A DNA stretch of 64,000 nucleotides, taken from IMG/VR virus record IMGVR_UViG_3300013132_000031, positions 44,086 through 108,085 of that record; one strand, 5' to 3'. Numbering within the stretch: the stretch's first letter is position 1; every line of letters begins with the position of its first letter. A program made the position numbers and the translations under genes. The notes beneath the pieces were generated by a model, which saw only the letters and a list, made by a program, of their open reading frames with translations, searched no databases and was not told where the DNA came from. This document shows positions 28,566-48,153 of this stretch, piece after piece. This DNA is from a virus.

Positions 28566-29762
28566 TCAACTAAATGACAAATTGCTCACGGCTATCTCGC
28601 CGACATAGTCGCCCGCATTGCCGAAGCTAGATGCAGTGTTAGTGAGCTCGATGTACCCATAACGAGTCATAAAACTCACCACTGGTTCGAATGTTGTGGG
28701 ATCAAGCACAACACCGCTGCTCATCAAAGGAATGTATGGGCAGTAGAATGCTGGTGCGTCAGCTTCTGAACTACCTTTGTAACCAACCAACACAGCTTGT
28801 GTGTCAGCAGCATAGCTGTCAACAAACACACGCATACTGCCGTTCAATGTACCAACAAACTTGGTGTTGGTAGGTGCTTCAAATGTACCTTCTGTAGTGC
28901 GAGCAAAAGCACTAGTTGTTGCACTTTGCAACACTGTCAGTGCAGCTGAACTAACCACAGCGTAGTTACCAGCGCCACGACGTGTGCGTTGAGCAATCAA
29001 GTTAGCCACACGGTTGACCAACACAGCCAGTGCGGCGTGTTCGTCACCAACAAATGTTGCTGTACCACTAACGGTAGCTTGGTTGTATGTGAACTCAGTA
29101 GCTGCCAGTGAACGCAAGCTCAAGAGAATCTCTTGGTCGATTTCAGCGGTAATTTCTTGAGCCAATGCTGCCATGATTTCTGCTTCAACGTCAATACCAT
29201 GCATGGCTTGTGCGTCTTGTGCAGATTCAAATGTCCAGCGAGCTTGCAACTTACGTGTGCGAGCTTCAACAGCTTGTTTCAGGATCTGAACGCTAATTTG
29301 CTTACCGCCAGTGCCTTCCATGGTAGCTGTGTTGCCACCAGTGTAGCTAGATGCGCTAGCTGTTCCGCTAGGAACAGTAGAATATGCCTGAGCAATTTTG
29401 AATGGACTCAATGCTTCTTCACCAGCTGCAACAGAAGTAGCGGCTGCACTGTTGTCTGTCAAGCTGTTGGCATACCGCACACGCAGGGTGTGGATTTGAC
29501 CAACAGGACCTGTCATGGGCTGAACGCCAACCAACTCGTTAGCAATAACGGTGGGCATAACACGACGGATCACTGGCAGAATCACACGGTTAAGTGTGGC
29601 AATGTTGCCAGCAGCAGTTGAACCTGCTGTTGCATTCTCTTTCAAGTAGCGACGGGTATTTTCTAAGATTACCCCCATGCTGTTGCGCTTGGAACCGCCA
29701 AGACCTTCAAGCAATGCTTCTTTGGTCTCGCCCCAGCGACTTTCTAATAGTTCTTGTGACAT
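28566..29762 (-). CDS. gp23: Major capsid protein (T4 gp23-like)
   Basis: GVQPMTGPVGQI, EARTRKLQARWT.E.AQD..A.HG.D.EAE, FYCPYIPL, FMTRYG. Confidence 0.97.
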   Translation of the reverse strand: MSQELLESRWGETKEALLEGLGGSKRNSMGVILENTRRYLKENATAGSTAAGNIATLNRVILPVIRRVMPTVIANELVGVQPMTGPVGQIHTLRVRYANSLTDNSAAATSVAAGEEALSPFKIAQAYSTVPSGTASASSYTGGNTATMEGTGGKQISVQILKQAVEARTRKLQARWTFESAQDAQAMHGIDVEAEIMAALAQEITAEIDQEILLSLRSLAATEFTYNQATVSGTATFVGDEHAALAVLVNRVANLIAQRTRRGAGNYAVVSSAALTVLQSATTSAFARTTEGTFEAPTNTKFVGTLNGSMRVFVDSYAADTQAVLVGYKGSSEADAPAFYCPYIPLMSSGVVLDPTTFEPVVSFMTRYGYIELTNTASSFGNAGDYVGEIAVSNLSFS

Positions 29763-32695: not shown

Positions 32696-34465
32696 TTATG
32701 CAGGCGGGGCAGGAGGAGCTGCAGTGGGGGCTCCTGGAGGCGTTGCTCCAACCGCAGCAGATCCAACACCGTTGGGTCCCATGTCTGCCATGGCTTCGCC
32801 AGTCTCGATGTCGCTTTCCAAGGCTGACGGAGTAATGCCCACAGATCTCAAGTCTTGTCCAGCATTGGTCTGCATGTCAACGTTATCACGTTCTTCCAGC
32901 CACATTTCTTCATTTTGTTTGATTTCTTCGTCGGTCAAGCCCAAGAAACGTTCCAGCATGAATCTCTTGCTCATGTAAGGCAACGCTTCCAAACTGGTAA
33001 ATGCTGTGATACGAGTGTTGTCCAGTTCGCTTTGACGATAGCTGGCAAAGTTTTGAGGTGCATTAAATATTATGTCAAACAAACTGGAGTCAAGATTAAA
33101 TCCGCGCCATTTCAAGAACATTTTGAATTCATCATCCAATTTCTGTGCTATCAGCTTTTGCAGGCGTTCACAGTACTGATTGAATCTGTATTCTTGAATC
33201 AGTGCTGTGCCCACTTTACCGTCGTTCAACACAGCAGATGAATCGTCAGGACCAGTGGGCAAGTAGCTACTAGGCACACGCAAACCACGGGCCATTTTGT
33301 TGTTGAAATATTTTAAATCGTCGATTTCGCCTAGATTTTTTCCGCCTTCCAGTGTGCTTACATCGCTGCCACGGCCTTCGGCTGTGACTGGAAAAAAGTA
33401 GTCTTCGTTGATGCTGAGTGGGTTGTAAGATGCATCCATCATGTTGTTGCCGCCACCGTTCATGGTGGGGATTCGCCGCTGATGCATTTCGTTTTTCACA
33501 CGTTCCACAAAGGCCATGGCCAAGTGGCTGGGCATGTTGCCCACGTCAATTTTGAAGATTCTGCGCTCTGGAGCACGGCTCACACGATAGATCAAGATAG
33601 CATCCTCCAGCAGTTCTTTTTGTTTGAACACTTTGTAGATCATTTCCAGCACTGATCTTCCAAATGGCCAGAAAACATCCAGGCCTTCGTTTAGACTAAT
33701 GTGTACCACGTGCTTGGCATCCAAACAAACTTCGTTCATGGCAGTCATAAAACGACTGTTGCCCACACCACCTCCGGTGCCGCCATTGGGCATGGTGTAG
33801 TTGGCATTGCCTGATATGGTGCCTGTCACCGGGTTGGTCATGTAGTCTGTGGTGGTCTTGGCTGCCACAGTCATGTTTTGGAAATTGGGGTTGATGTCAC
33901 GAATCACATACTGTTCAGGACGCTTGCCTTCTGATTCGTTCACAATCACACGAGCCACTTTGCTCATGTCCACCCACATCATTTCAAATGTTTCTGGGTC
34001 ACGCACAAACACTTGATCACCGTACTTGATGGTGTTGCGGAACAGTTTGAATATGCGCTGATCCAACTTGTTCAGCTTGACCCACTGTTTCAACTGTTTC
34101 TTAACAATGTCAATTTCGTTGTCTGTGGGTTTGTCACTCCAGCTGATGTCAAATGGTGTGCCATTTTGTTCGTTCATCTGTGTGGAAAACTCAGCAATGA
34201 TATCCAAACAAGCATTGATTTCACTGTCCATGTCCATGTTTTCGTACTGATTGTAGCGTTCAATACGATTGGGGTGACCACTGTAAACTTCGGGCAGTCT
34301 TGATGCATAGTTGCGGAACACAAAATCAGCTGAATTTTCACCATCATTGTTGCGACCGTATCCGGGCAAGCCCAGTTGATTACGACCCGATATAGGGCTC
34401 ATCACCCCTGACGTGTCTGCAACTTTGAAGTATTTTTTCCAGCCTTGTGAATTTTTATCTGCCAT
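32696..34465 (-). CDS. gp20: Portal protein (gp20-like)
   Basis: LLEDAILIYRVSRAPERRIFKIDVGNMP, EDYFFP, GG.NLGEIDD..YF, LRVPSSYL. Confidence 0.97.
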   Translation of the reverse strand: MADKNSQGWKKYFKVADTSGVMSPISGRNQLGLPGYGRNNDGENSADFVFRNYASRLPEVYSGHPNRIERYNQYENMDMDSEINACLDIIAEFSTQMNEQNGTPFDISWSDKPTDNEIDIVKKQLKQWVKLNKLDQRIFKLFRNTIKYGDQVFVRDPETFEMMWVDMSKVARVIVNESEGKRPEQYVIRDINPNFQNMTVAAKTTTDYMTNPVTGTISGNANYTMPNGGTGGGVGNSRFMTAMNEVCLDAKHVVHISLNEGLDVFWPFGRSVLEMIYKVFKQKELLEDAILIYRVSRAPERRIFKIDVGNMPSHLAMAFVERVKNEMHQRRIPTMNGGGNNMMDASYNPLSINEDYFFPVTAEGRGSDVSTLEGGKNLGEIDDLKYFNNKMARGLRVPSSYLPTGPDDSSAVLNDGKVGTALIQEYRFNQYCERLQKLIAQKLDDEFKMFLKWRGFNLDSSLFDIIFNAPQNFASYRQSELDNTRITAFTSLEALPYMSKRFMLERFLGLTDEEIKQNEEMWLEERDNVDMQTNAGQDLRSVGITPSALESDIETGEAMADMGPNGVGSAAVGATPPGAPTAAPPAPPA

Positions 34466-34481
34466 AGTGTGTTATTTATTG

Positions 34482-37142
34482 TTAGTTCACAGCGGCTTGT
34501 GCTATTCGTTGGTTGCTGGACACCAGGATTTTTTGCATGCGAGTCATGTCTTGCATTTCGGCTAGAATTTGTTGATTGACATCATCTCGAGGTTGTGCAG
34601 CGGCCTGCAGACTGATTTTGAGATCGTTCAATGCTGCTCGTATTTCTGCCCCGACATTGTGACTCATGTTTTTGCTCATGGCCTCAATCTTGGCCGGATC
34701 AATGTCTGGCTGAGCCATTGAATCCAACAAGCCGCCAGCACTGATTGTGACTGGTACTGATCCATTTTTCAAGGGAATAATGGCTTCTGGACCTTTTTCA
34801 CCTATGCGAGCCAGTTGCTCTCTGAGAGCAATGCCACCGTCACCAAAACTGTTTATTGCAGTGTCAAAATCTATAGTTGCTTTGTTTTGATTGCCCGGAA
34901 GACCAGTTTGGCCGCCAGCATCTTTGGGAATGCCAGCCCATATTCCACTAAGGCGTTTTACAAAGGCTTTCTTGGCATCTGGTGTGGGATTGGCAGCATA
35001 TTCATCATAGCCAGCTTGTTTGATCAAAGAGTCAGCCAATTGATCTTGAAGATCCTTGTCGAACATTTGATCGCCTTGAATTTTTAGCTGCGCAATTTTT
35101 TCTTTCAAAGTACTCTGTACTATTTGATATGCGCCTACGGCAGTGCTTTCTCCTTTTTTCAGTCCTTTTTTTCTGCGTTGGTCTTGCAAGGCCAACACTT
35201 GATCCACTGTCATTTTGGTCAGTTGCACTGCTGCTTGTTTGCCTTCGCCTTGCTGTATGTCATAGGGATTTTCTGCCCCTGGCGTGATCTCAGCACTTTT
35301 GATCATGTTTCTGATGTTCTGCATCTGCTGAGCTTGATTGGTGGGCGGTGGTGCTGATTGAACTTGTGGTGCCGGTGCTGTATTTGATTGTCTACCTTTA
35401 CCGGTCAGTCTGTCCAATATTCCCACACTACCTGGTGCTCGATTATCAACCGGACGTGGCGGTTGTGCTTGTGTTGCTGAGTTAGTATCCGCAGTGTTTT
35501 GAGCATTGTTTTGTGCATTGGGAGGTTGCGTTTGTTCAAGGCTTCCCTTGCGTTGTCGGCTTGGTGCGGCTGTGTTCTGCTGTTGTCCAGTGTATTCTTC
35601 ACGAAACTTGTCCAGCTTGTTCTGAGATTTTCTTTGTAAATCAAGGGCTGCCTGACCCTGACCGTTGTATGTTTTTAGAATTTTAACTAAGTCATCTAAC
35701 TGCTTTGCTATTTCCTTGCTGGCCGCAGCCAGCACCCTAGCTGGTGCCTGCAACTGTGGTTGAACCGATTCTACTAGGCCTTGCATTTCCAGTCCCAGCC
35801 TACGATTGCCTTCGTTGATTTTAGCTTGGTCAGCAGTGTTCTTACTGGCTTCATTTAGTTGTTTGCCGTATTCTTCGTCGGCCTTTTTAAATCTGTCCAC
35901 TATACTGGTTTGCAGTTTGGCAGCCAGATCAGCTGACTCGCTCATGCTCACAAACTTTGTATTGAAGTTGCCTGTGAGTCCCAGCACTGTGCCAATTGAA
36001 TCTCCTGTTTGTTGTACTTGTTTCAAAACTGTTTGTGCAGCTTCGGCTGGTTGTATGCTGCCTTCCAATAGTTTTTGCAGTGTGGCAAATGCTTCAGGTG
36101 CTGAACGTTGTAGTTTTTGCGCAGCTTCGCTGGTGAGGTTGCCGGCAAACATGTCTCTAGCACCTTGTGCCACTTCAGGAGCCAGACCTTGTACCACGTC
36201 GTTGAACATGGTCATGTTTTTTACACCTTCGGTGTTGCCGGCCAGTTCTAGGCCACGCAGTTTGGCTCTGAATCGCTCTTCATTCATGGCTGCGGCTCTG
36301 GCAGCTTCTCGTGATTTGCGATCCTGCCCAGTGATCATGGTCAGCTTGTTTTGTTCTTCCAAGTATTTTCGAGCACTTTCGCCCAACTTTTCTGAGTCAC
36401 CAATTTCAGCTTTTGTGTTTCTACCCAGCTGTGTTTGCAGCTTGAGATAACTCATGGTTGCATCGTTTATGTCTTCCTGAGTCATACCTGCACGAAACAA
36501 CGCTTCGCGATTGAGGTTGACCTGTGCTGACGATGCTGCTAGAACTTTGGCTCCTTGCCGCACTGTGCCACCCAACGATGCTAGATCTGCACTGCTTTGT
36601 TTTATAAGGCTACCGTATTCGGGAAATTCATTCAACAGGATTCCCATTTTTTGCAGGTCACCAAACATGCCTTCTAGACCGTCACTGGCAGTGGCACCCG
36701 ATTTGCTGATGTCTTGAAACAGTTTGAACTGTCCGGCAGCCATTTCATTGGACAGTTTGGCTGCTTCAGCGGCTGCACCAAACACCTTTGTTGTAATGTA
36801 GGCTGCTGCTGCCACCAGAGATTTTACAACCACACCACCAGGAGTAAGCACCACCAAACCTGCTGCTGCCAAATTTACTGTCTGTTGAAATTGATCCAAT
36901 GCTGCATTGGCTGCTGTGGCCGAAGTGTTGCCCTGATACACTGCTCGAGCATAGGCTCCTGTGGCTGATGCCAGAGTATTCAGCCCTTGCGCTGCCAAAT
37001 CGGTTTTCATGCCAAAATCTCGTATGCCAGTTTGGGCGTTCAGCAGCGCCTGGCGAGTGCCAGGCAGCACTTGACCAAATTGTTTCATGTCTTGATTGAC
37101 TTGTGCCAGGGTCTGCGACAGCTCTTGTTCTTGTGGGGTCAT
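34482..37142 (-). CDS. Tape-measure-like protein with lambda-R-like muramidase/lytic transglycosylase domain
   Basis: Ala/Gln-rich helical body; IKSAE..YD, STAVGAYQIV..TL, FDKDLQD, WAG motifs; GEKGPEAIIPL; start MTPQEQ after the late promoter. Confidence 0.7.
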   Translation of the reverse strand: MTPQEQELSQTLAQVNQDMKQFGQVLPGTRQALLNAQTGIRDFGMKTDLAAQGLNTLASATGAYARAVYQGNTSATAANAALDQFQQTVNLAAAGLVVLTPGGVVVKSLVAAAAYITTKVFGAAAEAAKLSNEMAAGQFKLFQDISKSGATASDGLEGMFGDLQKMGILLNEFPEYGSLIKQSSADLASLGGTVRQGAKVLAASSAQVNLNREALFRAGMTQEDINDATMSYLKLQTQLGRNTKAEIGDSEKLGESARKYLEEQNKLTMITGQDRKSREAARAAAMNEERFRAKLRGLELAGNTEGVKNMTMFNDVVQGLAPEVAQGARDMFAGNLTSEAAQKLQRSAPEAFATLQKLLEGSIQPAEAAQTVLKQVQQTGDSIGTVLGLTGNFNTKFVSMSESADLAAKLQTSIVDRFKKADEEYGKQLNEASKNTADQAKINEGNRRLGLEMQGLVESVQPQLQAPARVLAAASKEIAKQLDDLVKILKTYNGQGQAALDLQRKSQNKLDKFREEYTGQQQNTAAPSRQRKGSLEQTQPPNAQNNAQNTADTNSATQAQPPRPVDNRAPGSVGILDRLTGKGRQSNTAPAPQVQSAPPPTNQAQQMQNIRNMIKSAEITPGAENPYDIQQGEGKQAAVQLTKMTVDQVLALQDQRRKKGLKKGESTAVGAYQIVQSTLKEKIAQLKIQGDQMFDKDLQDQLADSLIKQAGYDEYAANPTPDAKKAFVKRLSGIWAGIPKDAGGQTGLPGNQNKATIDFDTAINSFGDGGIALREQLARIGEKGPEAIIPLKNGSVPVTISAGGLLDSMAQPDIDPAKIEAMSKNMSHNVGAEIRAALNDLKISLQAAAQPRDDVNQQILAEMQDMTRMQKILVSSNQRIAQAAVN

Positions 37143-37153
37143 GTTTGTGTGCC

Positions 37154-37175
37154 TATAAGTAGAACTATATTTATA
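37154..37175. promoter_or_regulatory. Overlapping divergent late promoters
   Basis: TATAAGTA on + (37154-37161) and TATAAATA on - (37168-37175). Confidence 0.7.
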
Positions 37176-37183
37176 GGTCAATT

Positions 37184-38026
37184 ATGCTCCAAACTTCTAA
37201 CCCTTTGCAACAGTTTTTCCGCCAACCTGCCATCTACATACGGTTGCCCAGCAATGGGCAGCACTGGCCACCGGGCAGTTTGGACATGCCGGCCAACTGT
37301 GAACTGCCAGTGTATCCCATGACTGCCATTGACGAAATCACCTATCGCACACCTGATGCGCTGTTCAATGGACAAAGCACAATCAGTGTGATTCAAAGCT
37401 GTGTGCCAAATATCAAAAATGCCTGGCACATGCCGGGAATTGATCTCAACAGTGTGCTGATTGCCATTAGAGTGGCCAGCTACGGTCACAACATGGAAGT
37501 GGACAGCACTTGTCCCAGTTGCGAGACCATGGGAGAGTATGTGACTGATCTCAGACGCATACTAGATCAAATGGACTCAGCCGACTACAATCTTCCAATT
37601 CAGTACGGCGATCTTGAAATTTATTTCAAGCCATTGAATTATCAGCAACAAAATCAAAGCAGCTTGGATCAGTTTGAACAACAAAAAATTCTAGCTGCTG
37701 TGCCCGAAAGTGATCTCACTGACGATGAAAAAATTGCACGTATGAATCAAGCCCTGGTGCGAATCACAGAAATGACCATGGAGTTGATCAGTCTGAGTAT
37801 TGCACTGATAAAAACTCCCACTGCCACTGTGACTGCCACGCAACACATTGCAGAATTTGTCAGCAACTGTGATCGAAAACTGTACCATGCCATACGTGAT
37901 CGCATGGTCGATCTGCGTAAAAGCACTGAGATTCCCAACATGCACATAGAGTGCAATGAGTGTAATCACAAGTACGAACAACAGATGACCTTGGACATGG
38001 TAAGTTTTTTCGACAAAGCCTCCTAA
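37184..38026 (+). CDS. gp26: Baseplate hub assembly/tail chaperone protein (gp26-like)
   Basis: IYIRLPS.G, PMTA.DEI, DL..VLIAIR.ASYG, two CxxC pairs, terminal SFF. Confidence 0.75.
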   Translation: MLQTSNPLQQFFRQPAIYIRLPSNGQHWPPGSLDMPANCELPVYPMTAIDEITYRTPDALFNGQSTISVIQSCVPNIKNAWHMPGIDLNSVLIAIRVASYGHNMEVDSTCPSCETMGEYVTDLRRILDQMDSADYNLPIQYGDLEIYFKPLNYQQQNQSSLDQFEQQKILAAVPESDLTDDEKIARMNQALVRITEMTMELISLSIALIKTPTATVTATQHIAEFVSNCDRKLYHAIRDRMVDLRKSTEIPNMHIECNECNHKYEQQMTLDMVSFFDKAS

Positions 38027-38052: not shown

Positions 38053-38241
38053 ATGGTTGAAACTTTGGACAAGGAGGCTAACCAGATTCGCTCAGAAAGT
38101 TTCAAATTGGCCTGGTACATGCGAGGCGGCATAACCTACGAACAAGTCATGCAGTTGAGTTCTGTTGAGCGCGGCATGATCAATGCATTGGCCAAAGAAA
38201 ATATTGAAACCACAAAGAAAACCAACTTACCATGGTTCTAA
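38053..38241 (+). CDS. Small gp51/GT-like ORF, probably made as a -1 frameshift extension of the gp26-like protein
   Basis: WYMRGGITYEQVMQLSSVER; frame open back through the slippery site 38005-38011; no clear SD. Confidence 0.7.
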   Translation: MVETLDKEANQIRSESFKLAWYMRGGITYEQVMQLSSVERGMINALAKENIETTKKTNLPWF

Positions 38242-38738
38242 ATCAAGAAACTGTTGCTGCTGACATCTTAGCCTGGAGTGAAACTTTTGTGGAAGTCCCG
38301 CATCCTGCACTAGGTGGGTGGCCGCCTTGCCCGTTTGCAAGGCAAGCACGCCTTAACCAAACCATACAAGTTTTGACTGGCACAGATCCTTACTTTGATC
38401 TAAAGAACCGAGCACGTTGGGGCATGGGCCGCTATGAGGTGGTTGTGTATGCATATGATCCTGAGGACTGGCCTTATGCTCGTTTTCACTCTGCCATTGA
38501 ATCAGCCAACCAAGAATTTTTGTTAGCACGTGATATCCTGGCTCTGGAAGATCATCCTGAGGATGTGGAAGATGTCAACGGTGTGATAATGAATCAAGGC
38601 CGGTATGCTTTGGTGCTGGTACAAAGTCTTTCAAAGTTAAACACAGCCGCCCGACAAATAGGCACCAAAGGATTTTATCATGCCTGGCCTGAAGAATACT
38701 TGACTGGGCTGTTTAGACATAGACAGGATCCCAGATGA
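38232..38738 (+). CDS. DUF1415-like protein
   Basis: W.E.FV..P...G..PCPFAR and DHP motifs. Confidence 0.5.
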   Translation: MVLNQETVAADILAWSETFVEVPHPALGGWPPCPFARQARLNQTIQVLTGTDPYFDLKNRARWGMGRYEVVVYAYDPEDWPYARFHSAIESANQEFLLARDILALEDHPEDVEDVNGVIMNQGRYALVLVQSLSKLNTAARQIGTKGFYHAWPEEYLTGLFRHRQDPR

Positions 38739-39172
38739 GCAGTTATCAGTTTGCCAGAATTGACCTCAGCAAAACCAACTACAGCATAGGCATAGAATGG
38801 ATGTACATAACCCGTCCAGATATTCCTGCACTCAATGCCATCTATCGTAATTACTGCGTGTACAAAAAGTTTTCAAGCGTGATGCCCATATTTGACAGCA
38901 GATACACCGACCCCATGACTGATGTGATTGGATATTATGACCAGGCCCAGCTGGTAGCGTTTTCACTGATCAAACGCTACGACGAACACAATGCACTGTG
39001 CGATCAATTTGCATGGACTTATCACAATCCTAAAATGCGCATGGGTATAGAAACAATGAAAGCCGAGTGTGCCATATACCGAGCACGAGGATTTAAGTAC
39101 TTGTATCTAGAACAAGCACACTTGTACAAAAGTGAAATAGACGGATTTGAAATATTAGGACCACTGGAATAA
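38735..39172 (+). CDS. Aminoacyl-tRNA-protein transferase (ATE/Bpt C-terminal GNAT)-like protein
   Basis: IY..YC.YK, GYYD..QLVAFSLI, W.Y.NP...MG..TMK.E....R.RGFKYLYL....YK....GFE pattern. Confidence 0.6.
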   Translation: MSSYQFARIDLSKTNYSIGIEWMYITRPDIPALNAIYRNYCVYKKFSSVMPIFDSRYTDPMTDVIGYYDQAQLVAFSLIKRYDEHNALCDQFAWTYHNPKMRMGIETMKAECAIYRARGFKYLYLEQAHLYKSEIDGFEILGPLE

Positions 39173-39175
39173 AAT

Positions 39176-40318
39176 ATGTATAGTGTATATCAACATTGGG
39201 ATCCACTCAAGGTATGTGTTGTGGGACGTAGTTACCCACCTGAGTTTTATTCATGGATCAAAATTCCACATGTACGATCGTTGTTTGAAAAAATAGCAAT
39301 TGAAACTGAAGAAGACTATCAAAAAATTATAAAAAAACTTCAAGAATTTGGCGTCGAAGTATTAAGACCTCAATTGTCCATCAACACCGTTGATAATCAA
39401 AAATATTTTCCGCCACCTATGTGTCCAAGAGATAATATGATTATGTTAGGACAAACATTTTATCATGCTGATCCGTTTAATTTTAAACAATTTTACAAAG
39501 ACGTTAAAGATACATCCTGGCCTCCATGCCAATCTTTAGAAGAATTTGCAACATTGCCACTGCTTATACAAGATGAATGCAATAATGTTCACAAATTGTC
39601 AGATCACCTATTGTCAACCTATCGTAAAACGTATGAAAATTATGATCACGTATTTGCTCAAATCAGCCAACAAGGCAATGAACTAAAGAAAACTGGTATT
39701 TCCAAAGAGCCTGGCGCTTTTATCAGCCGGATCGGCAGAGACTTGTATTTTGGCACAGAAAATTATACCCAAGATCAAACTCAGTATCAAATAAATATTG
39801 ACGCTGAATTTCCTAACACACGTAATCACATTGTGAACACTGGAGGGCACGGGGATGGTGTATATTGTCCTGTTTGTCCAGGTTTAATAATCAGTTTGCG
39901 CGACGTTCCAACATACAAAAAAACTTTCCCAGACTGGGAGGTTGTGTACTTGCCAGGACAGAGTTGGGCTAAAGTACAACCTTTTTTACGTCTCAAAGCA
40001 AAAAATCAAGGCAGATGGTGGATACCAGGGTTTGAACATGATCAAGCAGTGATTGACACTGTTGAAACTTGGTTGGGACATTGGGTCGGATATGTTGAGG
40101 AAACGGTGTTTGATGTCAATATGTTGATTGTTGATCCAAAAAATGTCATAGTGTTTAATTATAACAAACAGGTATTTGATGCACTACATCGTTACGGTAT
40201 TACTCCGCATATTGTGCCGTTTAGACACAGATATTTTTGGGATGGCGGCATACACTGTGTCACACTGGATTTACATCGAGAAGGTGTCATGCAAGATTAT
40301 TTTCCACAAAGAGGTTAA
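39176..40318 (+). CDS. Amidinotransferase (glycine/inosamine-phosphate amidinotransferase family)
   Basis: WDPLKVCVVGR, PRD, GHGDG, DVNML, catalytic-type C-terminus DGGIHCVTLDLHR. Confidence 0.9.
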   Translation: MYSVYQHWDPLKVCVVGRSYPPEFYSWIKIPHVRSLFEKIAIETEEDYQKIIKKLQEFGVEVLRPQLSINTVDNQKYFPPPMCPRDNMIMLGQTFYHADPFNFKQFYKDVKDTSWPPCQSLEEFATLPLLIQDECNNVHKLSDHLLSTYRKTYENYDHVFAQISQQGNELKKTGISKEPGAFISRIGRDLYFGTENYTQDQTQYQINIDAEFPNTRNHIVNTGGHGDGVYCPVCPGLIISLRDVPTYKKTFPDWEVVYLPGQSWAKVQPFLRLKAKNQGRWWIPGFEHDQAVIDTVETWLGHWVGYVEETVFDVNMLIVDPKNVIVFNYNKQVFDALHRYGITPHIVPFRHRYFWDGGIHCVTLDLHREGVMQDYFPQRG

Positions 40319-40319
40319 C

Positions 40320-40661
40320 ATGGATTTATACACAATTTGGGCAGACAAAGAAGGAGACATCTCAGACATTGACTGGGTCAACGGTATGAAGAGTTTCTTT
40401 GATCATCTAGTAGAAGAGGGCCGTATGGAAACCTATAGAATCACACGTTGCAAGATGGGATTCCGTAGCATAGCAGACATGCCCGAATGGATGATCATCA
40501 TGGAATTCCAGAACATGGCACAAATGGATCAAGCCTTTAAAAGAGTAGCACCACTCAAGGGCGATCTAGAAACCAAACATCGAAGTTTCAATCAGTTTGT
40601 TTCAGGAAACATTCAACATGCATTGTTTAGAGATTGGCCAGATACCAACTTGGATGATTGA
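40320..40661 (+). CDS. DUF6614-like dimeric alpha/beta-barrel protein
   Basis: Start MDLYTIW after SD GAGG; YRITRCKMGF, PEW.IIMEF..MAQMD.AF, LFRDWPD. Confidence 0.55.
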   Translation: MDLYTIWADKEGDISDIDWVNGMKSFFDHLVEEGRMETYRITRCKMGFRSIADMPEWMIIMEFQNMAQMDQAFKRVAPLKGDLETKHRSFNQFVSGNIQHALFRDWPDTNLDD

Positions 40662-40685
40662 TTGTATACTGTAAAAAGAGCTTGT

Positions 40686-41723
40686 ATGAATCAAAAAATA
40701 TGTGTTACTAGTTGGCGCAGCATGGGATGCACGTTTATTGACTGGAGTATTCATTTTTTATCTGGACAAACTAGATATTACAATGCCAGTGCAAATGATT
40801 TTATAGAGTTAAGCCAAAATCCAATCAACAACATAAACGCCCACGGGCACAATAAAAATCATCCACTGGGATATGCTGAAACAAAAAAATGTTTGGAAAT
40901 TTTTGACAATCTAACAGACCAGGCCATTTGTTCAATGTATGCTGCCTGGTTGCCGCTTGATAGTGGCGCCAATATTATCAACGTTGGTATTGAACAACTG
41001 CCTGAGTCCAATATGATGACACAAGTTCAACAAACCATTGCTGACGACTACAACAAGATCTTTGAACTATGTTATAAAACTAATACAAAGATAATATATG
41101 TTGCACCAGATGATAGAATGCACCTTTATCATCAATCCATTAGATCTCACAGTAGATTCATGACCAGGCCAGACCAACCAAATTCACCTAAAGAACTCAG
41201 TGATGAAATGCAGCAAGTGTTCTTTCAAAACAGTTTATCTCGTTGGCAAGATTTAAATTTAACCAACGTTTGGGACATCAGAGAACGCATGGCATTGGAT
41301 AGCAGGCCATTTGCTGCCCACAAAAGTGACACCAAAATCCTATATCCCCATCATTGGGTAAGTTGTTTGAGTTTGTGGACCCGAACAGAAGAATCTATAG
41401 CAAACATTTTAAAATATCTTGACTTAGAAATTGATGCCAAAAGATTAGAACAATGGTTGCCTATCTGCAGACAATGGCAAAAAATGCAAACAGACATACT
41501 TGAGTTTTGTTACAATCAGCCACACATTGTTGATGCTATTGTTAATAATTTGGATTTCAGTATTGACCTAACATTTGATCAAGAAGTTATAATTCAGCAT
41601 TGCTTGATTTATCAACATGGACTGAATCTAAAAACTTGGCAATTAAAAAAATTCCCATCAAACACACAGGAACTACACAAATTGTTAGAGCCTAACATAC
41701 ACCCAGTTCCGGTGATTTATTAA
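40686..41723 (+). CDS. Hypothetical protein, possibly P-loop/sulfotransferase-like; paralog of 47263..48153
   Basis: GCTFIDWSI, N.NAH.H, HP, C-terminal QE..IQ..L...FPSNT.ELHKLL. Confidence 0.5.
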   Translation: MNQKICVTSWRSMGCTFIDWSIHFLSGQTRYYNASANDFIELSQNPINNINAHGHNKNHPLGYAETKKCLEIFDNLTDQAICSMYAAWLPLDSGANIINVGIEQLPESNMMTQVQQTIADDYNKIFELCYKTNTKIIYVAPDDRMHLYHQSIRSHSRFMTRPDQPNSPKELSDEMQQVFFQNSLSRWQDLNLTNVWDIRERMALDSRPFAAHKSDTKILYPHHWVSCLSLWTRTEESIANILKYLDLEIDAKRLEQWLPICRQWQKMQTDILEFCYNQPHIVDAIVNNLDFSIDLTFDQEVIIQHCLIYQHGLNLKTWQLKKFPSNTQELHKLLEPNIHPVPVIY

Positions 41724-42180
41724 AGATCTCTAAGAGATCTGTTGATTTCGCTGTGCTCATCAACGTATTGTTTTTTCTAGCGCGAAGCGACCAAGTATTC
41801 ATGTAGATTGTTTTAGTCAGACGGAACCGTTTTGCGCGGTTCCATCTGTGTCTTCATGTGAGTTGAATCAGCCAAGACATTGGAAGTAGGTAATTTTTTA
41901 TACACCGTATGCTAAAGGACTCTGTGCTTTTCCTTCCTACCACGATACGCTAGTGCGCTCTAAACCTCGTTCCTAGTGTTTAGATGTTTATAGCCGGTGT
42001 CTTCGTATGCTAACATTCATACTATATCAATGCGTTGGCCCTATTGTTCTAGCCTCAAACTCGCTTCCCCTTCAGGATAGTGGGATTTACCCACGGGAGT
42101 GCATCAATATGTCACGTGTCCGGTTTATTCCCCGGTTTTTCCACAGCGGTATTGCAAACTGGCCCGCCAACCTTGGGTGT
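41724..42180 (-). ncRNA. Candidate large structured non-coding RNA of unassigned class
   Basis: Largest ORF-free gap in the window; many helices with G-U pairs only on the minus strand; possible pseudoknot. Confidence 0.7.
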
Positions 42181-42618
42181 TAGTTGATTTGTAATTTTAT
42201 CTTTGATGTGTGAGCCATGCACACGTACTTGTATATGGCCGTTGTAATAATCTGTTGATTCCAATACTCGCCTTGCAAATTGTTCTCTTGCCTCAATGTA
42301 ACTGCATTCAGACTTGCTTTTGCAATAGTAAAGTATTTCTCTGGAGAAGTTTTTGGTGCCTAAAGTGATTACGTCTGCGGTTAATTCTGGGCTTGACCCG
42401 TAGTACTCACGCCAGTCTGAATCGACTTTGGTTCGTATCTTTTTCCGCTTTTTGATGCCGTTCTTTTGTTTTACTGTCTTGTACGTTGTTTTTGAAAATT
42501 TCGCTAATTTTTTGCCTATGTACCGGCGTCCAGTGAGATTATTTGTGATCTGATAAACAAATCCCACACATTCTTCGGGCAGTGTCTCAACTGGGGTGTC
42601 TTGATAAAGCCATGTCAT
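42112..42618 (-). CDS. Short GIY-YIG nuclease (catalytic domain only)
   Basis: GFVYQITN..TGRRYIGKK, DWREYYGSS, FSREIL, E..EQF, YYN. Confidence 0.88.
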   Translation of the reverse strand: MTWLYQDTPVETLPEECVGFVYQITNNLTGRRYIGKKLAKFSKTTYKTVKQKNGIKKRKKIRTKVDSDWREYYGSSPELTADVITLGTKNFSREILYYCKSKSECSYIEAREQFARRVLESTDYYNGHIQVRVHGSHIKDKITNQLTPKVGGPVCNTAVEKPGNKPDT

Positions 42619-42681: not shown

Positions 42682-44763
42682 TTATGCTAGATCAATATCT
42701 GTGCTGTAACTGGTAAATCCGTTTTCTTTTACTACCCGGAGTATGTTCTCCACACGCCCGGCTAATTCGTCTCTATGGCTCACAAGCCAAATGCTCTTGT
42801 GACGCTCACGAGTCATCTTCTTCAACAGCGCCAAACTGGCTTCTACACCTTGCGTGTCTAGTCCAGAGTCAATCATCTCATCAATAAACAAGATGTTGAT
42901 GGGGTGATACAAACTTTCCCATACATCACGGAATGCCCAACTCATGCTAAGGATCAATCGATTACGCTCACCACGACTCAAGTTGTCAAAGTCAAGTTCT
43001 CGACCCAGTTCCTCAATGCTCACACTCAAGTCGTTTTGAAACTTCACTGTGTGCGGCAATCCAATGCGATCCAAATAGTGTGTGAGTCGGGCATTCAAGT
43101 AACTTAGATTCTGATCAATAATTTTTTTACGAACAAAACTATCTTTGCTGGTCAACAGTTTGAGCAAGAACTCTTGATGGTCTTGCACTTTGGTCAGTTC
43201 GTTAATTTTATTGTAGTCAACCACTTGCAAGGCCTGTTGTTGCATGTCCTCAATCTGTTCGCTGTAGGGATCAGTTTCGGCATGCTTGCTGGTGATATGT
43301 TGTAGCAAGTTATTGACTTGTGTGGAGTGTTTGATGGCCTGTGCTTCTGTGTCGTAGTGTGTGACAGGAGGAGCACCCAATTCCACAGGCACATAACCTG
43401 CAAGTTGTTCAGCATAAGGATCTGCTTCTGCTGACTTGTCTGCAATCTTTTGCTGTAAATTTTCCACCTCACTGCTGTGGCGAATGGCTTCTGCTTCGGT
43501 CTTGTAGTATGTTGTGGACCGAGCGCCCAGTTCGCCCAATGCTCGAAGTGCATCAGTATTTTCCATCCATTGACCATTGGTGGCCAAGGCTTGTAGTGCA
43601 GACTCCTGCAGTGCTTTACGCTTGGTTTCCAGCACAGTTTCGTGGGCACCGTCATGAAACTCTTGACCACAAGCATAACACTTGTGTGCTTCTAGTTCAG
43701 CAATCTCTGCCCGGAGTTTATCTGAAGTCTTTTGTTCTCGTGCTTCATCTGACACACAACGAGCAATGAGTTTTTCAAGTTCAGCAATGTCCTTGGCCCG
43801 TTGATTGTATGCGGCCAAGTCTTGGTGTGCTTGTAGTTCTGCTGAGATATTAATGTGACTGAGTTTGGTGTAACTGTCTTGCAATGCAGCAACTTCTTTG
43901 GCCTGTGTTTGTTGCCAAGCGGTTTGATATGCCAGCAGTCGATCATGTGCATCTGCTTGTTTTTTACGTTCGTTCCACAAGGCAAGTTCTTTGTGAGCCA
44001 ACAACTCTACTTCAATGTTGACTCGTGTCAAGTCATCGTATTGCCCCACAAGATACGCCAAGTCGCTGTCGTATTTCTTTTGCCACAGCCCCTGTCTACG
44101 GCACAGGCTTTCAATTTGTTCTTCAATGCGCTTGTTGGCTTCTTGAACAGCCCGCACCCTAAACTCTTCTGAGGTAATAGCGTCCTTGGTGGCCTTGTTG
44201 AGTTCTTTGATACGATCAGCACGTTCACTCAATACTGTAATACCCAACAACTGCTCAATGATGGTTCGCTGTTCGTTGGCTTTCAAACTTAAGAATGGTT
44301 CGGTATATGTGTTCAGCGCCAAGATGTGCTTGAACATGTCATGACTCATGCCAAACACACGCTCAATGGCATCCTGTGTTTCACGGCTGTCACCCTGTGC
44401 ATCGTCTGTGGCAGTTTGTTCTTCACTGTCCACATAGAAACGTAGGACATTGGGTTTGCGTCCACGTTCAATCTTGTATGTTTTACCGTTGACGGCAAAG
44501 TCCAAGCTGACCAACATGCCCTTGCCATTGGTTTTGTTTACTAGATTGTCCTTGCGAATGTTGCTGAGTGCTTGTCCATACATGGCATAACTCAGGGCAT
44601 TGATGATTGTGGTCTTGCCTGTGCCATTGCGTGATCCGTCACCACCCAGGTCCAAATTCTCACCTAACACCAGCGTAAGGTCTTGACGATCAAAGTCAAT
44701 GCCTTGCGTGGCCGCACCCACACTCATGAAGTTCTTAACAGTGAGATTTTTAATTTGAATCAT
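42682..44763 (-). CDS. gp46: Recombination ATPase gp46 (Rad50/SbcC-like)
   Basis: Walker A NGTGKTT, zinc hook CYAC, signature LSRGE, Walker B LFIDE, SH. Confidence 0.95.
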   Translation of the reverse strand: MIQIKNLTVKNFMSVGAATQGIDFDRQDLTLVLGENLDLGGDGSRNGTGKTTIINALSYAMYGQALSNIRKDNLVNKTNGKGMLVSLDFAVNGKTYKIERGRKPNVLRFYVDSEEQTATDDAQGDSRETQDAIERVFGMSHDMFKHILALNTYTEPFLSLKANEQRTIIEQLLGITVLSERADRIKELNKATKDAITSEEFRVRAVQEANKRIEEQIESLCRRQGLWQKKYDSDLAYLVGQYDDLTRVNIEVELLAHKELALWNERKKQADAHDRLLAYQTAWQQTQAKEVAALQDSYTKLSHINISAELQAHQDLAAYNQRAKDIAELEKLIARCVSDEAREQKTSDKLRAEIAELEAHKCYACGQEFHDGAHETVLETKRKALQESALQALATNGQWMENTDALRALGELGARSTTYYKTEAEAIRHSSEVENLQQKIADKSAEADPYAEQLAGYVPVELGAPPVTHYDTEAQAIKHSTQVNNLLQHITSKHAETDPYSEQIEDMQQQALQVVDYNKINELTKVQDHQEFLLKLLTSKDSFVRKKIIDQNLSYLNARLTHYLDRIGLPHTVKFQNDLSVSIEELGRELDFDNLSRGERNRLILSMSWAFRDVWESLYHPINILFIDEMIDSGLDTQGVEASLALLKKMTRERHKSIWLVSHRDELAGRVENILRVVKENGFTSYSTDIDLA

Positions 44764-46256
44764 ATATTGCTATTATACACATAGCCCATGGCTTTTGCAA
44801 TCTCAGGATGAGAATCCGCAAAATTTTGATTTCTTAAAGAATCAAAGTGCTTGCATAGTTTTATAAATTCTTGCCCATCTGAATCAGGACCTGATAAGAT
44901 ATAGTTTAAGATATTTTTCATTTCGGGCCAAACGCGATGTTGAAATTTTTCTGTGATCAACTTTTTAGCCTCAGCAGTGAGATTTTTAAGATCAAACCCA
45001 GCTGGTTCAGTAACATACCCCACATTTATTGCAAGTCCTAAATCATTAGCCCATTGTACTATTTCGTCTAGGTATAAAACATTCATTATGCTGATTGCGG
45101 GCATAACACTTATTTTGATATTGGGCAAGTTAAGAGCAATTAACTTTTTGATGTTTGAATCAACTTGCTGCCAACTACCACCTCGTTCAAGTTCAAACCG
45201 ATCACCGATGTTGTCGATGCTGAATTGTATGTCCACATGATTGAAATGTTTCCAGTATTCAATCAATGTTTCAGGATACACAGATCCATTGCTGTTATAG
45301 TGTAACCGAATTTGTGAGGCATGTCCTTGTTCTACTGCTTGTTGAATTATGTGCAGCAAAGATTTCAGCAAAAACGGTTCACCGCCGTACATGTCTATGT
45401 TAGTTAAATTTGGCAATAATTTTACAATTTCATCTACAATTTCGAGATTAGATTCTGGCCAATTAAAACTTTCTATAGAAATAAATTTAGATGCTTTTAC
45501 TTCTTGTGCAAACAAGGAACTGCCCAGCGGATTACAAATGCGGCATTTAAAATTGCAAGTATTTCCCGGTTTAATATCTAAACTTTTAATAGTGGGACTA
45601 TCCAAATCAACTGTCAGCAGTTCTTTTTGCAACATACGCATGTGATAATATCGGCTGCTGGTCAACCCTTTTTCTTCGCTGGCCCAACAATTGTTGCATC
45701 CACTGGGTTTTTTACCATCAAGCAATTGTTGACGTAGATCTTGAATACTATGATTGTTAAATGTGTGTTGCAATGAATTTTTTTTGACATGACCAACACT
45801 GTGTTGGTACACACAGCATGGACGAATCTCTCCAGACGGTGAAACTTCTAAGTGTCTCCAAGGCAGCGGACACAGTGTATTTGGGACAAAAAAGTTGTTT
45901 TTTATAGGCTCAGTAGTTTCAATTTCCACTTGCAGTGTTTGAAATGTGTTTGTGTGGTTTAATTTTGCAAAGTGTTTTGTTTGTTGATCAATATCATATG
46001 GACTGCAAATTAACACAAAATAATTTGATATATCAATCAAATCAGTAGCCTGATACAGATGTTGTAGCAAACTAACTGGTATAATTTTTGAAGTATAAAA
46101 AACCAGTCGATCGTTATTACTAAATTTTTCCTGATGGCAACGATCAAAATGTTTGTATGCATGAGTTGGAGAAGTAGACAGTTCGGCCAAGTCAACAAAA
46201 CATTTTACATCATAAAGATTTTGCAGGCTTTTTTCTAAATGATCTATTGACATCAT
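44760..46256 (-). CDS. Radical SAM protein with N-terminal SPASM/twitch-like Cys domain
   Basis: CPLPW...RPCC...CNNC, then CNFKCRIC, YGGEP, YNSNG, SIDN. Confidence 0.9.
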   Translation of the reverse strand: MMSIDHLEKSLQNLYDVKCFVDLAELSTSPTHAYKHFDRCHQEKFSNNDRLVFYTSKIIPVSLLQHLYQATDLIDISNYFVLICSPYDIDQQTKHFAKLNHTNTFQTLQVEIETTEPIKNNFFVPNTLCPLPWRHLEVSPSGEIRPCCVYQHSVGHVKKNSLQHTFNNHSIQDLRQQLLDGKKPSGCNNCWASEEKGLTSSRYYHMRMLQKELLTVDLDSPTIKSLDIKPGNTCNFKCRICNPLGSSLFAQEVKASKFISIESFNWPESNLEIVDEIVKLLPNLTNIDMYGGEPFLLKSLLHIIQQAVEQGHASQIRLHYNSNGSVYPETLIEYWKHFNHVDIQFSIDNIGDRFELERGGSWQQVDSNIKKLIALNLPNIKISVMPAISIMNVLYLDEIVQWANDLGLAINVGYVTEPAGFDLKNLTAEAKKLITEKFQHRVWPEMKNILNYILSGPDSDGQEFIKLCKHFDSLRNQNFADSHPEIAKAMGYVYNSNI

Positions 46257-47266
46257 AAGTTTTGATATATTTGTAGCAACAATTTGTTATCGTAAAATTC
46301 TGATTCGATGTTGGTGAGTTGGTCTGTGACAATTTGATCCACTGACTCAAACTTGACATCACCGGGTGCAAGGTCCACATCCACACCGGCAGTCTTGTTT
46401 GGTATCAAAGCCATTTCACGCAGACTGTAATCTCGAATAAAAGTTTCTTTGATGAAGTTGGCTTCTTCGTATGAGATTTCAATGTCCAAGTTTACACGAA
46501 CGTGCATCCGGGGCGCAAGCAAAGTGGCAGCATTGTCAATTAGATTGGCAAGCCCATACACACGATATCGGGGCTGGTCTGGCCAGGCATGGAACTCAGG
46601 TTCTTTGCCCCATTCCAAGATCATCATGCCGCGCTCGTCGTCTCCAGCATCAGCATAGTTATGCGGAAAGCAGTTGCCGATGTAGGTAATGTTGTTGGCA
46701 GTTTGACGTTTGTGAAAGTGTCCGGTAAACACATGCTCAAAGCCGCCAAAATCGCCACGCTGTATGATGCCATGATCTGGCATTTGAACCATGGCATTCA
46801 TGTAGTAGCCAGGCAGCTCAAAGTGCCCAAACATGTAACGTCCTGTCAGTCGGGGAATACGCTTGTGATCATCTCCGCAAAGCCAAGGAGCAATAACAAC
46901 ATCACCACTGCTGAACCAATCATTGCAAATCGTGACATTGGGGAGGTGTCGGGCCCATTCCACCGATTGAATATCTCTTTTATCCCGATAATAAAGGTCA
47001 TGGTTGCCAGGAATAAAATAAACGTGCTTAAAATTTTCATTCATGTGCTCCAAGGCTCGAAGACTATAGTTCAGTGTGATAATGTTTAGGCTGGCACGAT
47101 TGTTGTGCCAATCGCCCAGGAACAAGCAGGTTTCGCAACCTTGTTCTCGAGCTCGGGCAGTGGCCCACTGTACAAATTCCAAACAGTCTTCGTTGTGTGT
47201 TTGGCTGTTTGATTTCAATCCAAAGTGTATGTCTGTAAAGACTGCGGCTTTTTTAAATAGATTCAT
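46253..47266 (-). CDS. gp47: Recombination nuclease gp47 (Mre11/SbcD-like)
   Basis: DIHFG, LGDWH, GNHD, GHFE, GHFH metallophosphoesterase motifs. Confidence 0.95.
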   Translation of the reverse strand: MNLFKKAAVFTDIHFGLKSNSQTHNEDCLEFVQWATARAREQGCETCLFLGDWHNNRASLNIITLNYSLRALEHMNENFKHVYFIPGNHDLYYRDKRDIQSVEWARHLPNVTICNDWFSSGDVVIAPWLCGDDHKRIPRLTGRYMFGHFELPGYYMNAMVQMPDHGIIQRGDFGGFEHVFTGHFHKRQTANNITYIGNCFPHNYADAGDDERGMMILEWGKEPEFHAWPDQPRYRVYGLANLIDNAATLLAPRMHVRVNLDIEISYEEANFIKETFIRDYSLREMALIPNKTAGVDVDLAPGDVKFESVDQIVTDQLTNIESEFYDNKLLLQIYQNL

Positions 47267-48153
47267 ATGGCGTAGAGTAGTTCTCGCAAGTGTACACTAT
47301 TTGTTGGGAACTTGTCAAGTTCATGACATTGAATTTCCCATCCAATATTTCTCAACTGCCACTGCACATAGGATTCACTGGCCAAGGGCAGTGTTTGATC
47401 GCTCCAGTCAAAAGTTTTGTTGTGTTGCACCGAATCAACAATGGCTGCACACAGTTGGTCTTGAGCAAGATTGGTTTGCAGCAGTAAATTTTTTCTATGA
47501 TAAGGCACAATGTCTGTGATTGGTCGCACAAAGTCAAGATTGAGATTGTGTTGTAATTGGGTCATGACCGATTCAAAATTGTACAGCAAGTCATGAATCA
47601 ACACGGTGTGCGCTCGCTTGTGATGCCACTGATCCAAATGATACCATTCCAACTGTGCGTACCATGCTGGCATGAGATAATGGCTGAGAAATTCTCTGCG
47701 AATCCACTGGGGAATTTCACCTATGGCAACACCGGTCACAGCCCAATTTGAATAAATTAGAGACTGATCAATGTCAAGAGCAAACTGCGTGGTCCACCAG
47801 TCGTCCCAGGCCTTGACAAGGTAGTTGTTGATCACCAGTAACTGACTGTGATGATCAGGATAAAGATAGATCATGCCAGGCACTGATTCAAGAATTTGAT
47901 TTAAATTTTCACTCAATGATTCTGTAGACCGGGTCTTGGGGTGCAGCCTCACAAACTGCTGACAGTCACCGCTGTGTTGATACTGTAGCCAACCAGGTAG
48001 GCCTGAAACAAAATTACCAACAAATTGATGACTATTACCGTTGGGGTTGAATGGTTCCTGAATGGGACCATGCGAACACAGAGTGGTCAAACACCATTCA
48101 ACATAGGTGCCATAGGCACCGGCATTGTAGGCTATGGCAATGGTGTTGATCAT
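47263..48153 (-). CDS. Hypothetical protein, possibly P-loop/sulfotransferase-like; paralog of 40686..41723
   Basis: GAYGTYVEWCL, NGNSH, LHP, C-terminal ESYVQWQL...FPTNSVHLRELL. Confidence 0.5.
   Translation of the reverse strand: MINTIAIAYNAGAYGTYVEWCLTTLCSHGPIQEPFNPNGNSHQFVGNFVSGLPGWLQYQHSGDCQQFVRLHPKTRSTESLSENLNQILESVPGMIYLYPDHHSQLLVINNYLVKAWDDWWTTQFALDIDQSLIYSNWAVTGVAIGEIPQWIRREFLSHYLMPAWYAQLEWYHLDQWHHKRAHTVLIHDLLYNFESVMTQLQHNLNLDFVRPITDIVPYHRKNLLLQTNLAQDQLCAAIVDSVQHNKTFDWSDQTLPLASESYVQWQLRNIGWEIQCHELDKFPTNSVHLRELLYAI

Follow-up and report, generated by a model that had tools for sequence, protein, structure and literature searches.

A gene cassette of giant T4-like phages pairing a predicted ATE_C-type transferase with a probable thiolate-haem oxygenase may tailor a non-protein amine with arginine or guanidino groups

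RESULTS

Organization of the cassette

The DNA analyzed here, hereafter the window, comprises the final 64 kb of the 108-kb viral contig IMGVR_UViG_3300013132_000031 of IMG/VR (64,000 nucleotides (nt), positions 44,086 to 108,085 of the record; 31% complete by CheckV), and the subject of this study is a cassette of four closely packed genes on its plus strand, A, B, C and D, which may serve to modify a non-protein acceptor with arginine or guanidino groups. Gene A (38232–38738, 168 amino acids), gene B (38735–39172, 145 amino acids), gene C (39176–40318, 380 amino acids) and gene D (40320–40661, 113 amino acids, DUF6614) were all found on the plus strand where an earlier annotation made from the letters alone (the sequence-only reading) had placed them. 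Its description of the four as coupled genes with gaps of 3 nt or less was also borne out, in that A and B overlap by 4 nt at an ATGA, and the gaps between B and C and between C and D are 3 nt and 1 nt, respectively. The start of D was assigned to the ATG at 40320 and not to the upstream TTG at 40176, because its homologues begin with MDLYTIW. The stop codon of D abuts the open reading frame (ORF) of gene E (40662–41723, plus strand, 353 amino acids), a variable accessory gene whose true start may be the ATG at 40686. On the upstream side, a conserved ORF of 62 amino acids (38053–38241, plus strand) lies between A and a gene for a gp26-like baseplate hub protein and overlaps A by 10 nt; copies with 44–100% identity were found at the same position in related loci, and searches of Pfam and PHROG with this ORF gave no match. 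The GC content was 46.0% for the hub gene, 47.3% for A, 42.0% for B, 37.5% for C, 41.5% for D and 36.2% for E.

Conservation of the gene set among related loci

At least 548 viral contigs were found to encode a relative of B (2833 protein clusters). The best 80 were analyzed, and 51 of these loci had flanks of 1.6 kb or more on either side. Relatives of C numbered 158 in viral contigs, 80 of which were analyzed, and had the same neighbours. The recurrence of the same gene neighbours in so many viral contigs is far above chance. A, B and D were present in all of the 51 well-flanked B-anchored loci, whereas C stood between B and D in only 7 of them and was missing from the other 44. When C was used as the anchor, about 45 loci showed the arrangement hub-A-B-C-D-SegE-gp46, some of them with the order of B and C swapped, some with C duplicated and occasionally with E.

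The joints in lake-metagenome contigs were informative about how C and E come and go. Such contigs join 39172 to 40318 and 39175 to 40320, so that exactly C is missing, and in other lake contigs C is placed ahead of B; insertion of C was seen either after B or between A and B. Regarding E, position 40643 is followed by 41738 in a metagenome contig, with 29 other letters at the joint, indicating that E was replaced there and not cleanly deleted. These joints, together with the locus counts and the GC contrast, argue that the conserved unit is the A-B-D triad and that C and E are cassette-sized add-ons. The sequence-only reading had taken four linked genes as one unit; the linkage stood for A, B and D, and C turned out to be an optional insertion.

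In addition, A-B-C(-D) was contiguous in very divergent phages outside the T4-hub context (loci L071, L072, L078, L080 and L081), in which A is approximately 35%, B 28–54% and C 47–55% identical. B and at least one paralogue of C also occurred together in all three near-complete genomes of 342–345 kb that were tested (G001, G002 and G009).

Gene A: a probable miniature thiolate-haem oxygenase

The sole Pfam match of A was to DUF6875 over residues 11–48, below the threshold (16.7 bits versus a cut-off of 24.5). Among 23 homologues of A, 21 matched DUF6875, likewise below threshold (best E 8.5e-4), and one matched DUF1415; the feature neighbours of A in the ESM-Atlas were clusters named DUF1415/DUF6875. 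These neighbours and the weak Pfam matches agree with the former annotation of A as DUF1415-like. In the alignment of the 23 homologues, C33 within the motif P-C-P-x-A-R was invariant, and an E-D-H-P motif was also present.

The AlphaFold2 model of A (predicted local distance difference test score (pLDDT) 93) was compared with 48,161 chains in a VIA search, and the best match was AglA (9ub3_A) with a Z score of 6.5, a root-mean-square deviation of 4.1 and 152 of 168 residues superposed, where Z below 8 can be a chance fold resemblance; the next match had Z 4.2. Foldseek with the same model returned no match at E ≤ 0.001. AglA of Streptomyces monomycini, in which Cys44 ligates the haem within a new sandwich fold, serves as the prototype of the guanidine N-hydroxylases of the YqcI/YcgG family (PMC12866846), and cytochrome P422 is the new name given to DUF6875, whose thiolate-haem proteins have their ligand Cys in the motif R-x-G-x-V-C-P (bioRxiv 10.64898/2025.12.11.692455). 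From the resemblance of its model to the AglA sandwich fold, the most likely identity of A is that of a miniature haem oxygenase with a Cys ligand, of the YqcI/YcgG-P422 type. It resembles cytochrome P422 in being a small predicted thiolate-haem alpha/beta protein with the putative ligand Cys in a C-P motif, the region that its Pfam match spans. On the other hand, P422 proteins are 180–300 amino acids long and act on tryptophan, A scores below the Pfam cut-off, and the Gly of A is at position −4/−5 instead of the −3 of R-x-G-x-V-C-P.

It had been proposed that the DUF1415-like gene might supply the missing half of the transferase encoded by B. This was rejected, as the modelled fold of A is neither GNAT nor ATE_N and resembles the haem-binding sandwich of AglA instead; the probable oxygenase role of A had no place in the sequence-only reading.

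Gene B: a single GNAT domain of the ATE_C type

When B alone was searched against Pfam, NCBIfam, PHROGs and PDB sequences, no match was obtained. Its homologues were more telling: ATE_C was matched in Pfam (E ≤ 1) by 15 of the 22 B homologues from related loci, the best of which was the 221-amino-acid relative in locus L078 (28.4 bits versus a cut-off of 25). A profile search with B over 1.84 billion representatives collected 190 proteins, including forms of 225–265 amino acids, and 9 of 10 such longer relatives passed the ATE_C cut-off. The top PDB sequence match obtained with the profile was Kluyveromyces lactis Ate1, with a marginal E of 0.011. In the AlphaFold2 model (pLDDT 90) the whole of B forms one GNAT domain, with Z scores of up to 15.7. 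The fold, the Pfam matches of the relatives and the profile search together bear out the ATE_C/GNAT call of the sequence-only reading, a call that the lack of this fold would have refuted. The model superposes on ATE1 and on the second GNAT domain of tandem enzymes, including the aminoacyl-tRNA users MprF, FemX and Sbb17/Sba18. It superposes equally well on acyl-CoA users such as VipF and NMT, and for this reason the fold alone cannot fix the donor of B.

A clue to the donor comes from the binding pocket of Ate1. The arginine pocket of Ate1 is formed by Ser255, Ser273, Glu277 and Tyr289, of which Glu277 is the only charged residue and is replaced by Gln in the Leu-specific Bpt (PMC9351520). 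In the hidden Markov model alignment, these four residues stand opposite C89, T107, E111 and L123/Y124 of B, respectively; E281 of the Ate1 chain, which carries a 4-residue tag and corresponds to the untagged Glu277, aligns with profile position 110, that is, E111 of B, and this Glu is at least 90% conserved in the homologues. On these sequence grounds, B probably works like an aminoacyl-tRNA transferase with arginine as the donor.

B is not a full member of the Ate1/Bpt family, however. It shares with Ate1 and Bpt the ATE_C-type GNAT domain with Y-x-Y-L ... Y-K ... F-E-x-L motifs and a conserved equivalent of Glu277, but its length is approximately 60% of that of Bpt and less than 30% of that of Ate1, and all of its 145 amino acids belong to the GNAT domain, leaving no ATE_N domain. 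None of the B homologues of 143–147 amino acids has an N-terminal extension, and 50–100 extra residues were found only in the distant relatives of 220–265 amino acids. In Ate1 and Bpt, ATE_N provides the positively charged pocket for an acidic protein N-terminus and carries the Cys/zinc motif (PMC9351520). B has neither this pocket nor this motif and probably does not recognize acidic protein N-termini, which argues against classical N-terminal protein arginylation.

Gene C: a relative of amidinotransferases

The PDB matches of C were HsvA (2.8e-9), StrB1 (5e-8), SxtG (4.6e-7) and AGAT (1e-5), and they rest mainly on residues 308–376. In 16 homologues of C with 50–77% identity, P84-R85-D86, D189, H225, D227 and C361 were invariant and aligned with the motifs of StrB1 and HsvA. 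The HGDG and GGIHC motifs that had been pointed out in C are therefore real (H225-G-D227-G and G-G-I-H-C361), and its link to the amidinotransferases is upheld by the four PDB matches and the intact motifs. No curated Pfam or NCBIfam model reached its threshold on C; the score against the Pfam ADI model was 16.4 bits versus a cut-off of 22.8, and those against the NCBIfam arginine deiminase models were far below the cut-offs. Deiminases and dihydrolases have the same Cys-His-Asp triad as amidinotransferases. Judged by its motifs, C is an amidinotransferase-like enzyme with the Cys-His-Asp guanidino-group-modifying fold, for which transfer rather than hydrolysis is putative. It is alike to StrB1, HsvA, SxtG and AGAT in its fold family as deduced from sequence and in the intact P-R-D, H-x-D and G-G-x-H-C motifs, and unlike them in that the similarity is mostly confined to the C-terminal ~65 residues plus short motifs, and in that C has expanded to several paralogues per phage genome.

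Such paralogues were observed in several records. G009, the 343-kb record of locus L172 (99% complete), encodes at least four amidinotransferase-like paralogues (233698–234852, 130681–131661, 63179–64201 and 236361–237272), and G001 and G002 each have two tandem copies of C plus a 25%-identical paralogue adjoining a UDP-glucose dehydrogenase gene. A 345-amino-acid paralogue (G011:C1:82403-83020, locus L184) has one in-frame TGA in an otherwise open frame. In a third context of C (loci L002–L010, L023, L027 and L028), the gene order is helicase ... C-like, C, f18, with a C-like ORF of ~300 amino acids directly upstream of the full-length C; only the part corresponding to residues 66–150 of C is detectable in it, at ~40% identity, and it may be a degraded or specialized duplicate.

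Genes D and E

D matched DUF6614 (PF20319) with E 8e-22 and 77.9 bits (cut-off 25) over profile positions 1–108 of 116, as expected from its previous designation as DUF6614-like, and it is the best conserved member of the cassette with 66–92% identity. Its feature neighbours in the Atlas were DUF4286/DUF6974/EthD; taken as a lead only, they would make D possibly an alpha+beta-barrel (Dabb-like) accessory protein. A hint at an anti-Druantia function of DUF6614, given by a phage ORF in one preprint (10.1101/2024.04.14.589459), was too thin and was set aside. Regarding E, searches of Pfam, NCBIfam, PHROG and PDB gave no match. Its C-terminus faintly resembles a 296-amino-acid ORF at 47263–48153 (E 0.022), and E occurs in only ~10–15% of the related cassettes, at times inverted.

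Sugar and 7-deazapurine genes around C and the cassette

In approximately 15 loci, C occurs alone and is translationally coupled to its neighbours, which are, in order, a GT1 glycosyltransferase and a GalE-type UDP-hexose 4-epimerase before it and a short DegT-like protein after it. The epimerase satisfied the GalE equivalog TIGR01179 (308.9 bits versus a cut-off of 262.3), and the DegT-like protein keeps the S-F-x-H-x-K lysine region. In two loci (L015 and L017), the whole cassette stands in the place of C at this GalE/DegT-like site, and the cassette-bearing records G005 and G006 contain several epimerase and DegT genes. StrB1 acts after the DegT-family aminotransferase StsC in streptidine synthesis, an order that is echoed by the GalE-C-DegT-like arrangement of these phages. 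A keto or amino sugar would give the amine needed both by an amidinotransferase, as for StrB1 after StsC, and by an aminoacyl-tRNA transferase, as for Sbb17/Sba18. The sugar link of the cassette is a modest lead.

Downstream of GalE-C-DegT-like, genes for GTP cyclohydrolase I, a HIT protein and PTPS were found. Likewise, in locus L078 (1162–8460) A, B (inverted, 221 amino acids), C and D lie between genes for GTP cyclohydrolase I, a cytidylyl/adenylyltransferase-like protein and a QueD-like protein on one side and a QueE-like radical SAM protein on the other. The 117-kb record of this locus contains neither QueC nor DpdA. In addition, TGT/DpdA (PF01702) and QueC (PF06508) were absent from G000 (31% complete), G001 (99% complete, 345 kb), G004, G005 and G006, while the controls matched in 14/14 and 13/14 genomes. 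The FolE/QueD/QueE-like neighbours in L078 had prompted the idea of 7-deazaguanine in DNA, which was rejected as the leading interpretation because TGT/DpdA and QueC were missing from the five records.

Transcription signals and neighbouring genes

The cassette follows a gp26-like baseplate hub gene (37184–38026, plus strand; PF12322 T4_baseplate, E 4.7e-13; phrog_150, baseplate hub), which is at the head of the plus-strand gene string preceding it, belongs to its context and lies outside the proposed pathway; a hub gene is also upstream of the cassette in most related loci. The sequence-only reading had described a late-promoter-driven tail gene here. The tail gene is as described, being a gp26-type hub gene, but the promoter calls for a caveat: the sole exact T4 late-promoter word here, TATAAATA, is on the minus strand at 37168–37175, within the ~40-nt divergent region between the hub gene and a tape-measure-like gene (true start probably the ATG near 37142), and faces the latter. 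On the plus strand only a one-mismatch version, TATAAGTA, is present, at 37155–37162, ~22 nt ahead of the ATG of the hub gene. From these promoter-like words, late expression of the cassette is plausible. At the other end, a terminator-like hairpin with a T-rich tail lies directly 3' of E (41724–41740, plus strand; 7-bp stem with 3 GC pairs; found by consensus scan only), which likely marks the end of the plus-strand transcription unit as far as a sequence scan can suggest; the count of terminator-like sites in the region was not above that of shuffled sequence.

The interval 41724–42111 between E and SegE is the only sizeable ORF-free gap, and many small indels were observed at 41846–42124 in related lake contigs. 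Nearly every related locus has the SegE-type GIY-YIG homing endonuclease gene (42112–42618, minus strand; PF19835, 3.7e-32) next to the end of the cassette that varies, and co-conversion by SegE could be the way in which C and E are gained, lost and shuffled. Beyond it lie genes for a gp46-like ATPase (42682–44763), a radical SAM/SPASM protein (44760–46256, minus strand; PF04055 5e-12, PF13186 3e-11) and a gp47-like phosphoesterase (46253–47266). The radical SAM/SPASM gene between gp46 and gp47 has a GC content of 35.5%, is far AT-richer than its neighbours, and is at this site in some of the related loci only (L031, L063 and L086). Upstream in the window are the genes for the gp23 capsid protein (28566–29762) and the gp20 portal protein (32696–34465).

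Near-identical DNA is contained in lake-water metagenomes, and related contigs reach 342–345 kb with 95–99% completeness, from which we infer that the source is a freshwater giant T4-like phage. Among GenBank phages, megablast with the region and tblastn with B gave 0 matches each, and C alone was matched distantly, by marine single-virus contigs and Synechococcus phage S-SCSM2R. A scan of genome contigs found two with the cassette (L085 and L086, NZ_JBBAKG010000003.1 and NZ_JBBAKG010000001.1), both in one Haliscomenobacter metagenome-assembled genome. These contigs (148 and 183 kb) are phage-like, with portal, tape measure, hub, A-B-D, SegE and gp46 genes, and their presence in that genome reflects faulty binning or else points to the host.

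DISCUSSION

We propose, with a probability of about one half, that the cassette encodes an arginine/guanidine-tailoring pathway acting on the primary amine of a non-protein acceptor, an assignment made by analogy with characterized enzymes. In this pathway, B as a minimal ATE_C-type GNAT would take an aminoacyl group (probably that of arginine) off charged host tRNA and pass it to the amine, as does AglC or, on an amino sugar, Sbb17/Sba18. A, as a small Cys-ligated haem protein, would then hydroxylate or oxidize the product, most likely at the guanidine nitrogen, in the manner of AglA, DcsA and Mhr24. Where present, C would use free arginine for amidination of an amine, as StrB1 and HsvA do, so as to add a second guanidino group or to prepare the acceptor, and D would be an obligatory small partner. 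The conserved core is A-B-D, with C and E as mobile add-ons and the operon appended to baseplate-hub genes. As acceptor, an amino sugar, a sugar nucleotide or a virion glycan is slightly favoured, since elsewhere the cassette or C is located between sugar-nucleotide genes and these phages have many sugar-tailoring genes.

The steps of B, A and C are proposed after argolaphos biosynthesis, the closest worked-out logic. In that system, AglC together with ArgRS and tRNA forms an arginyl amide, whose guanidine is then hydroxylated by the thiolate-haem enzyme AglA, the free amino acid being a poor AglA substrate (PMC12866846), and the cluster contains GNAT-type tRNA-dependent ligases beside a YqcI/YcgG enzyme (PMC8976061). 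The likeness to the AglC plus AglA pair of Streptomyces monomycini would lie in the combination of a tRNA-dependent arginine ligase of the GNAT superfamily with a small Cys-ligated haem enzyme, and the model of A matches AglA best. There are also clear differences: B is a 145-amino-acid single GNAT of the ATE_C type, whereas the candidate argolaphos ligases AlpF/AlpO are GNATs of 342–356 amino acids (PMC8976061); A (168 amino acids) is nearer to DUF6875/DUF1415 than to YqcI/YcgG by sequence features; and the cassette is phage-borne, has no phosphonate genes, and has DUF6614 and an amidinotransferase in addition.

Several points weigh against a tailoring pathway of this kind. The substrate assignments are all by analogy. 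A and B of the window itself are below Pfam thresholds, the AglA match of A has a Z score in the range of chance fold resemblance, and C33 is a putative counterpart of the haem ligand. The argument from E111 depends on an Ate1 alignment of marginal significance (E 0.011). Tight packing is common to phage accessory genes of any function, and the GalE/DegT neighbourhood may mark no more than an insertion hot spot, as a further phage (G007 contig C1) has the GalE/DegT-like genes side by side with no C between them. Moreover, C may act independently, since most cassettes do not have it, its AT content exceeds that of the adjacent genes, it has several paralogues, and it occurs in at least three other genomic sites.

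This last point leads to a rather unlikely alternative in which C and E are outside any joint pathway, C being an independent auxiliary gene (for a guanidino polyamine, a sugar or an osmolyte, for instance) in a recombination hot spot beside A-B-D, perhaps helped by SegE. It would account for the absence of C from 44 of the 51 cassettes and its precise loss in metagenome contigs, for its GC content of 37.5% as against 41.5–47.3% for the hub gene, A, B and D, for its occurrence alone in three other contexts with up to four or more paralogues per genome, and for the GIY-YIG SegE gene by the variable region in nearly all loci. However, C can stand within the triad, separating A from B, and not only behind B, and A-B-C is contiguous at 28–55% protein identity in phages with wholly different flanking genes; such contiguity in divergent phages is hard to explain without selection for co-expression.

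The other alternatives keep the cassette together and change the acceptor of B. T4-like phages commonly modify their own DNA, and B could aminoacylate a base in phage DNA, with A and C tailoring the added group so as to block host nucleases. A precedent is Mom of phage Mu, a late-expressed single-domain phage GNAT that uses Gly-tRNA to modify adenine in double-stranded DNA (PMC13219725), and the neighbours of the cassette or of C in L078 and in the loci of the GalE context include GTP cyclohydrolase I, PTPS/QueD and the QueE-like radical SAM protein, which are 7-deazapurine precursor enzymes. B is like Mom in being a phage-encoded single GNAT, and Mom is a late-expressed enzyme that puts an aminoacyl-tRNA-derived group on a non-protein acceptor (PMC13219725). 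In contrast to the proposed cassette, Mom works alone, on DNA and with Gly-tRNA; no sequence relation between the two was detected, and the sequence and fold matches listed for B did not include Mom. We consider DNA hypermodification improbable, as the known 7-deazaguanine route into DNA is missing with TGT/DpdA and QueC from the five related records, and the cassette is behind structural genes and not behind genes of replication or nucleotide metabolism. Even less probable is that B is a phage N-degron writer attaching Arg or Leu N-terminally to proteins of the host or the phage, its neighbours being unrelated or regulatory. All characterized ATE_C family members transfer aminoacyl groups to protein N-termini (PMC9351520), and the putative co-transcription with virion genes would suit modification of structural proteins; but B does not have ATE_N, the recognition pocket for acidic N-termini, and protein tagging leaves unexplained why B is almost constantly paired with a haem-oxygenase-like protein and frequently has an amidinotransferase beside it.

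Our searches of the literature on the DUF families and on phages with amidinotransferase or ATE found no description of the cassette, which would represent known chemistry in a new host, namely phages. The ATE family is known only for tagging of protein N-termini, and a stand-alone ATE_C protein nearly always paired with a haem-oxygenase-like protein would widen its scope. We tentatively extend the proposal to a picture in which giant T4-like phages of freshwater and marine habitats combine host arginyl-tRNA, a minimal ATE_C transferase, a mini thiolate-haem N-oxygenase and amidinotransferases to place an (N-hydroxy)guanidino decoration on virion glycans or DNA. If this is true, phage hypermodification would gain a new chemical class and the ATE family its first role beyond proteins, and B would join Mom and the transferases of the cell-wall/lipid type as the third kind among phage enzymes diverting charged host tRNA. 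Regarding A, the YqcI/YcgG and P422 small thiolate-haem enzymes were structurally recognized only in 2025, and a phage thiolate-haem enzyme of 168 amino acids would be smaller than any known so far and useful as a scaffold for catalysts. The present value of the cassette is that of a concrete, testable gene set and not of a solved mechanism. If its product decorates virions or DNA, it would bear on how abundant lake phages evade defences or bind their hosts.

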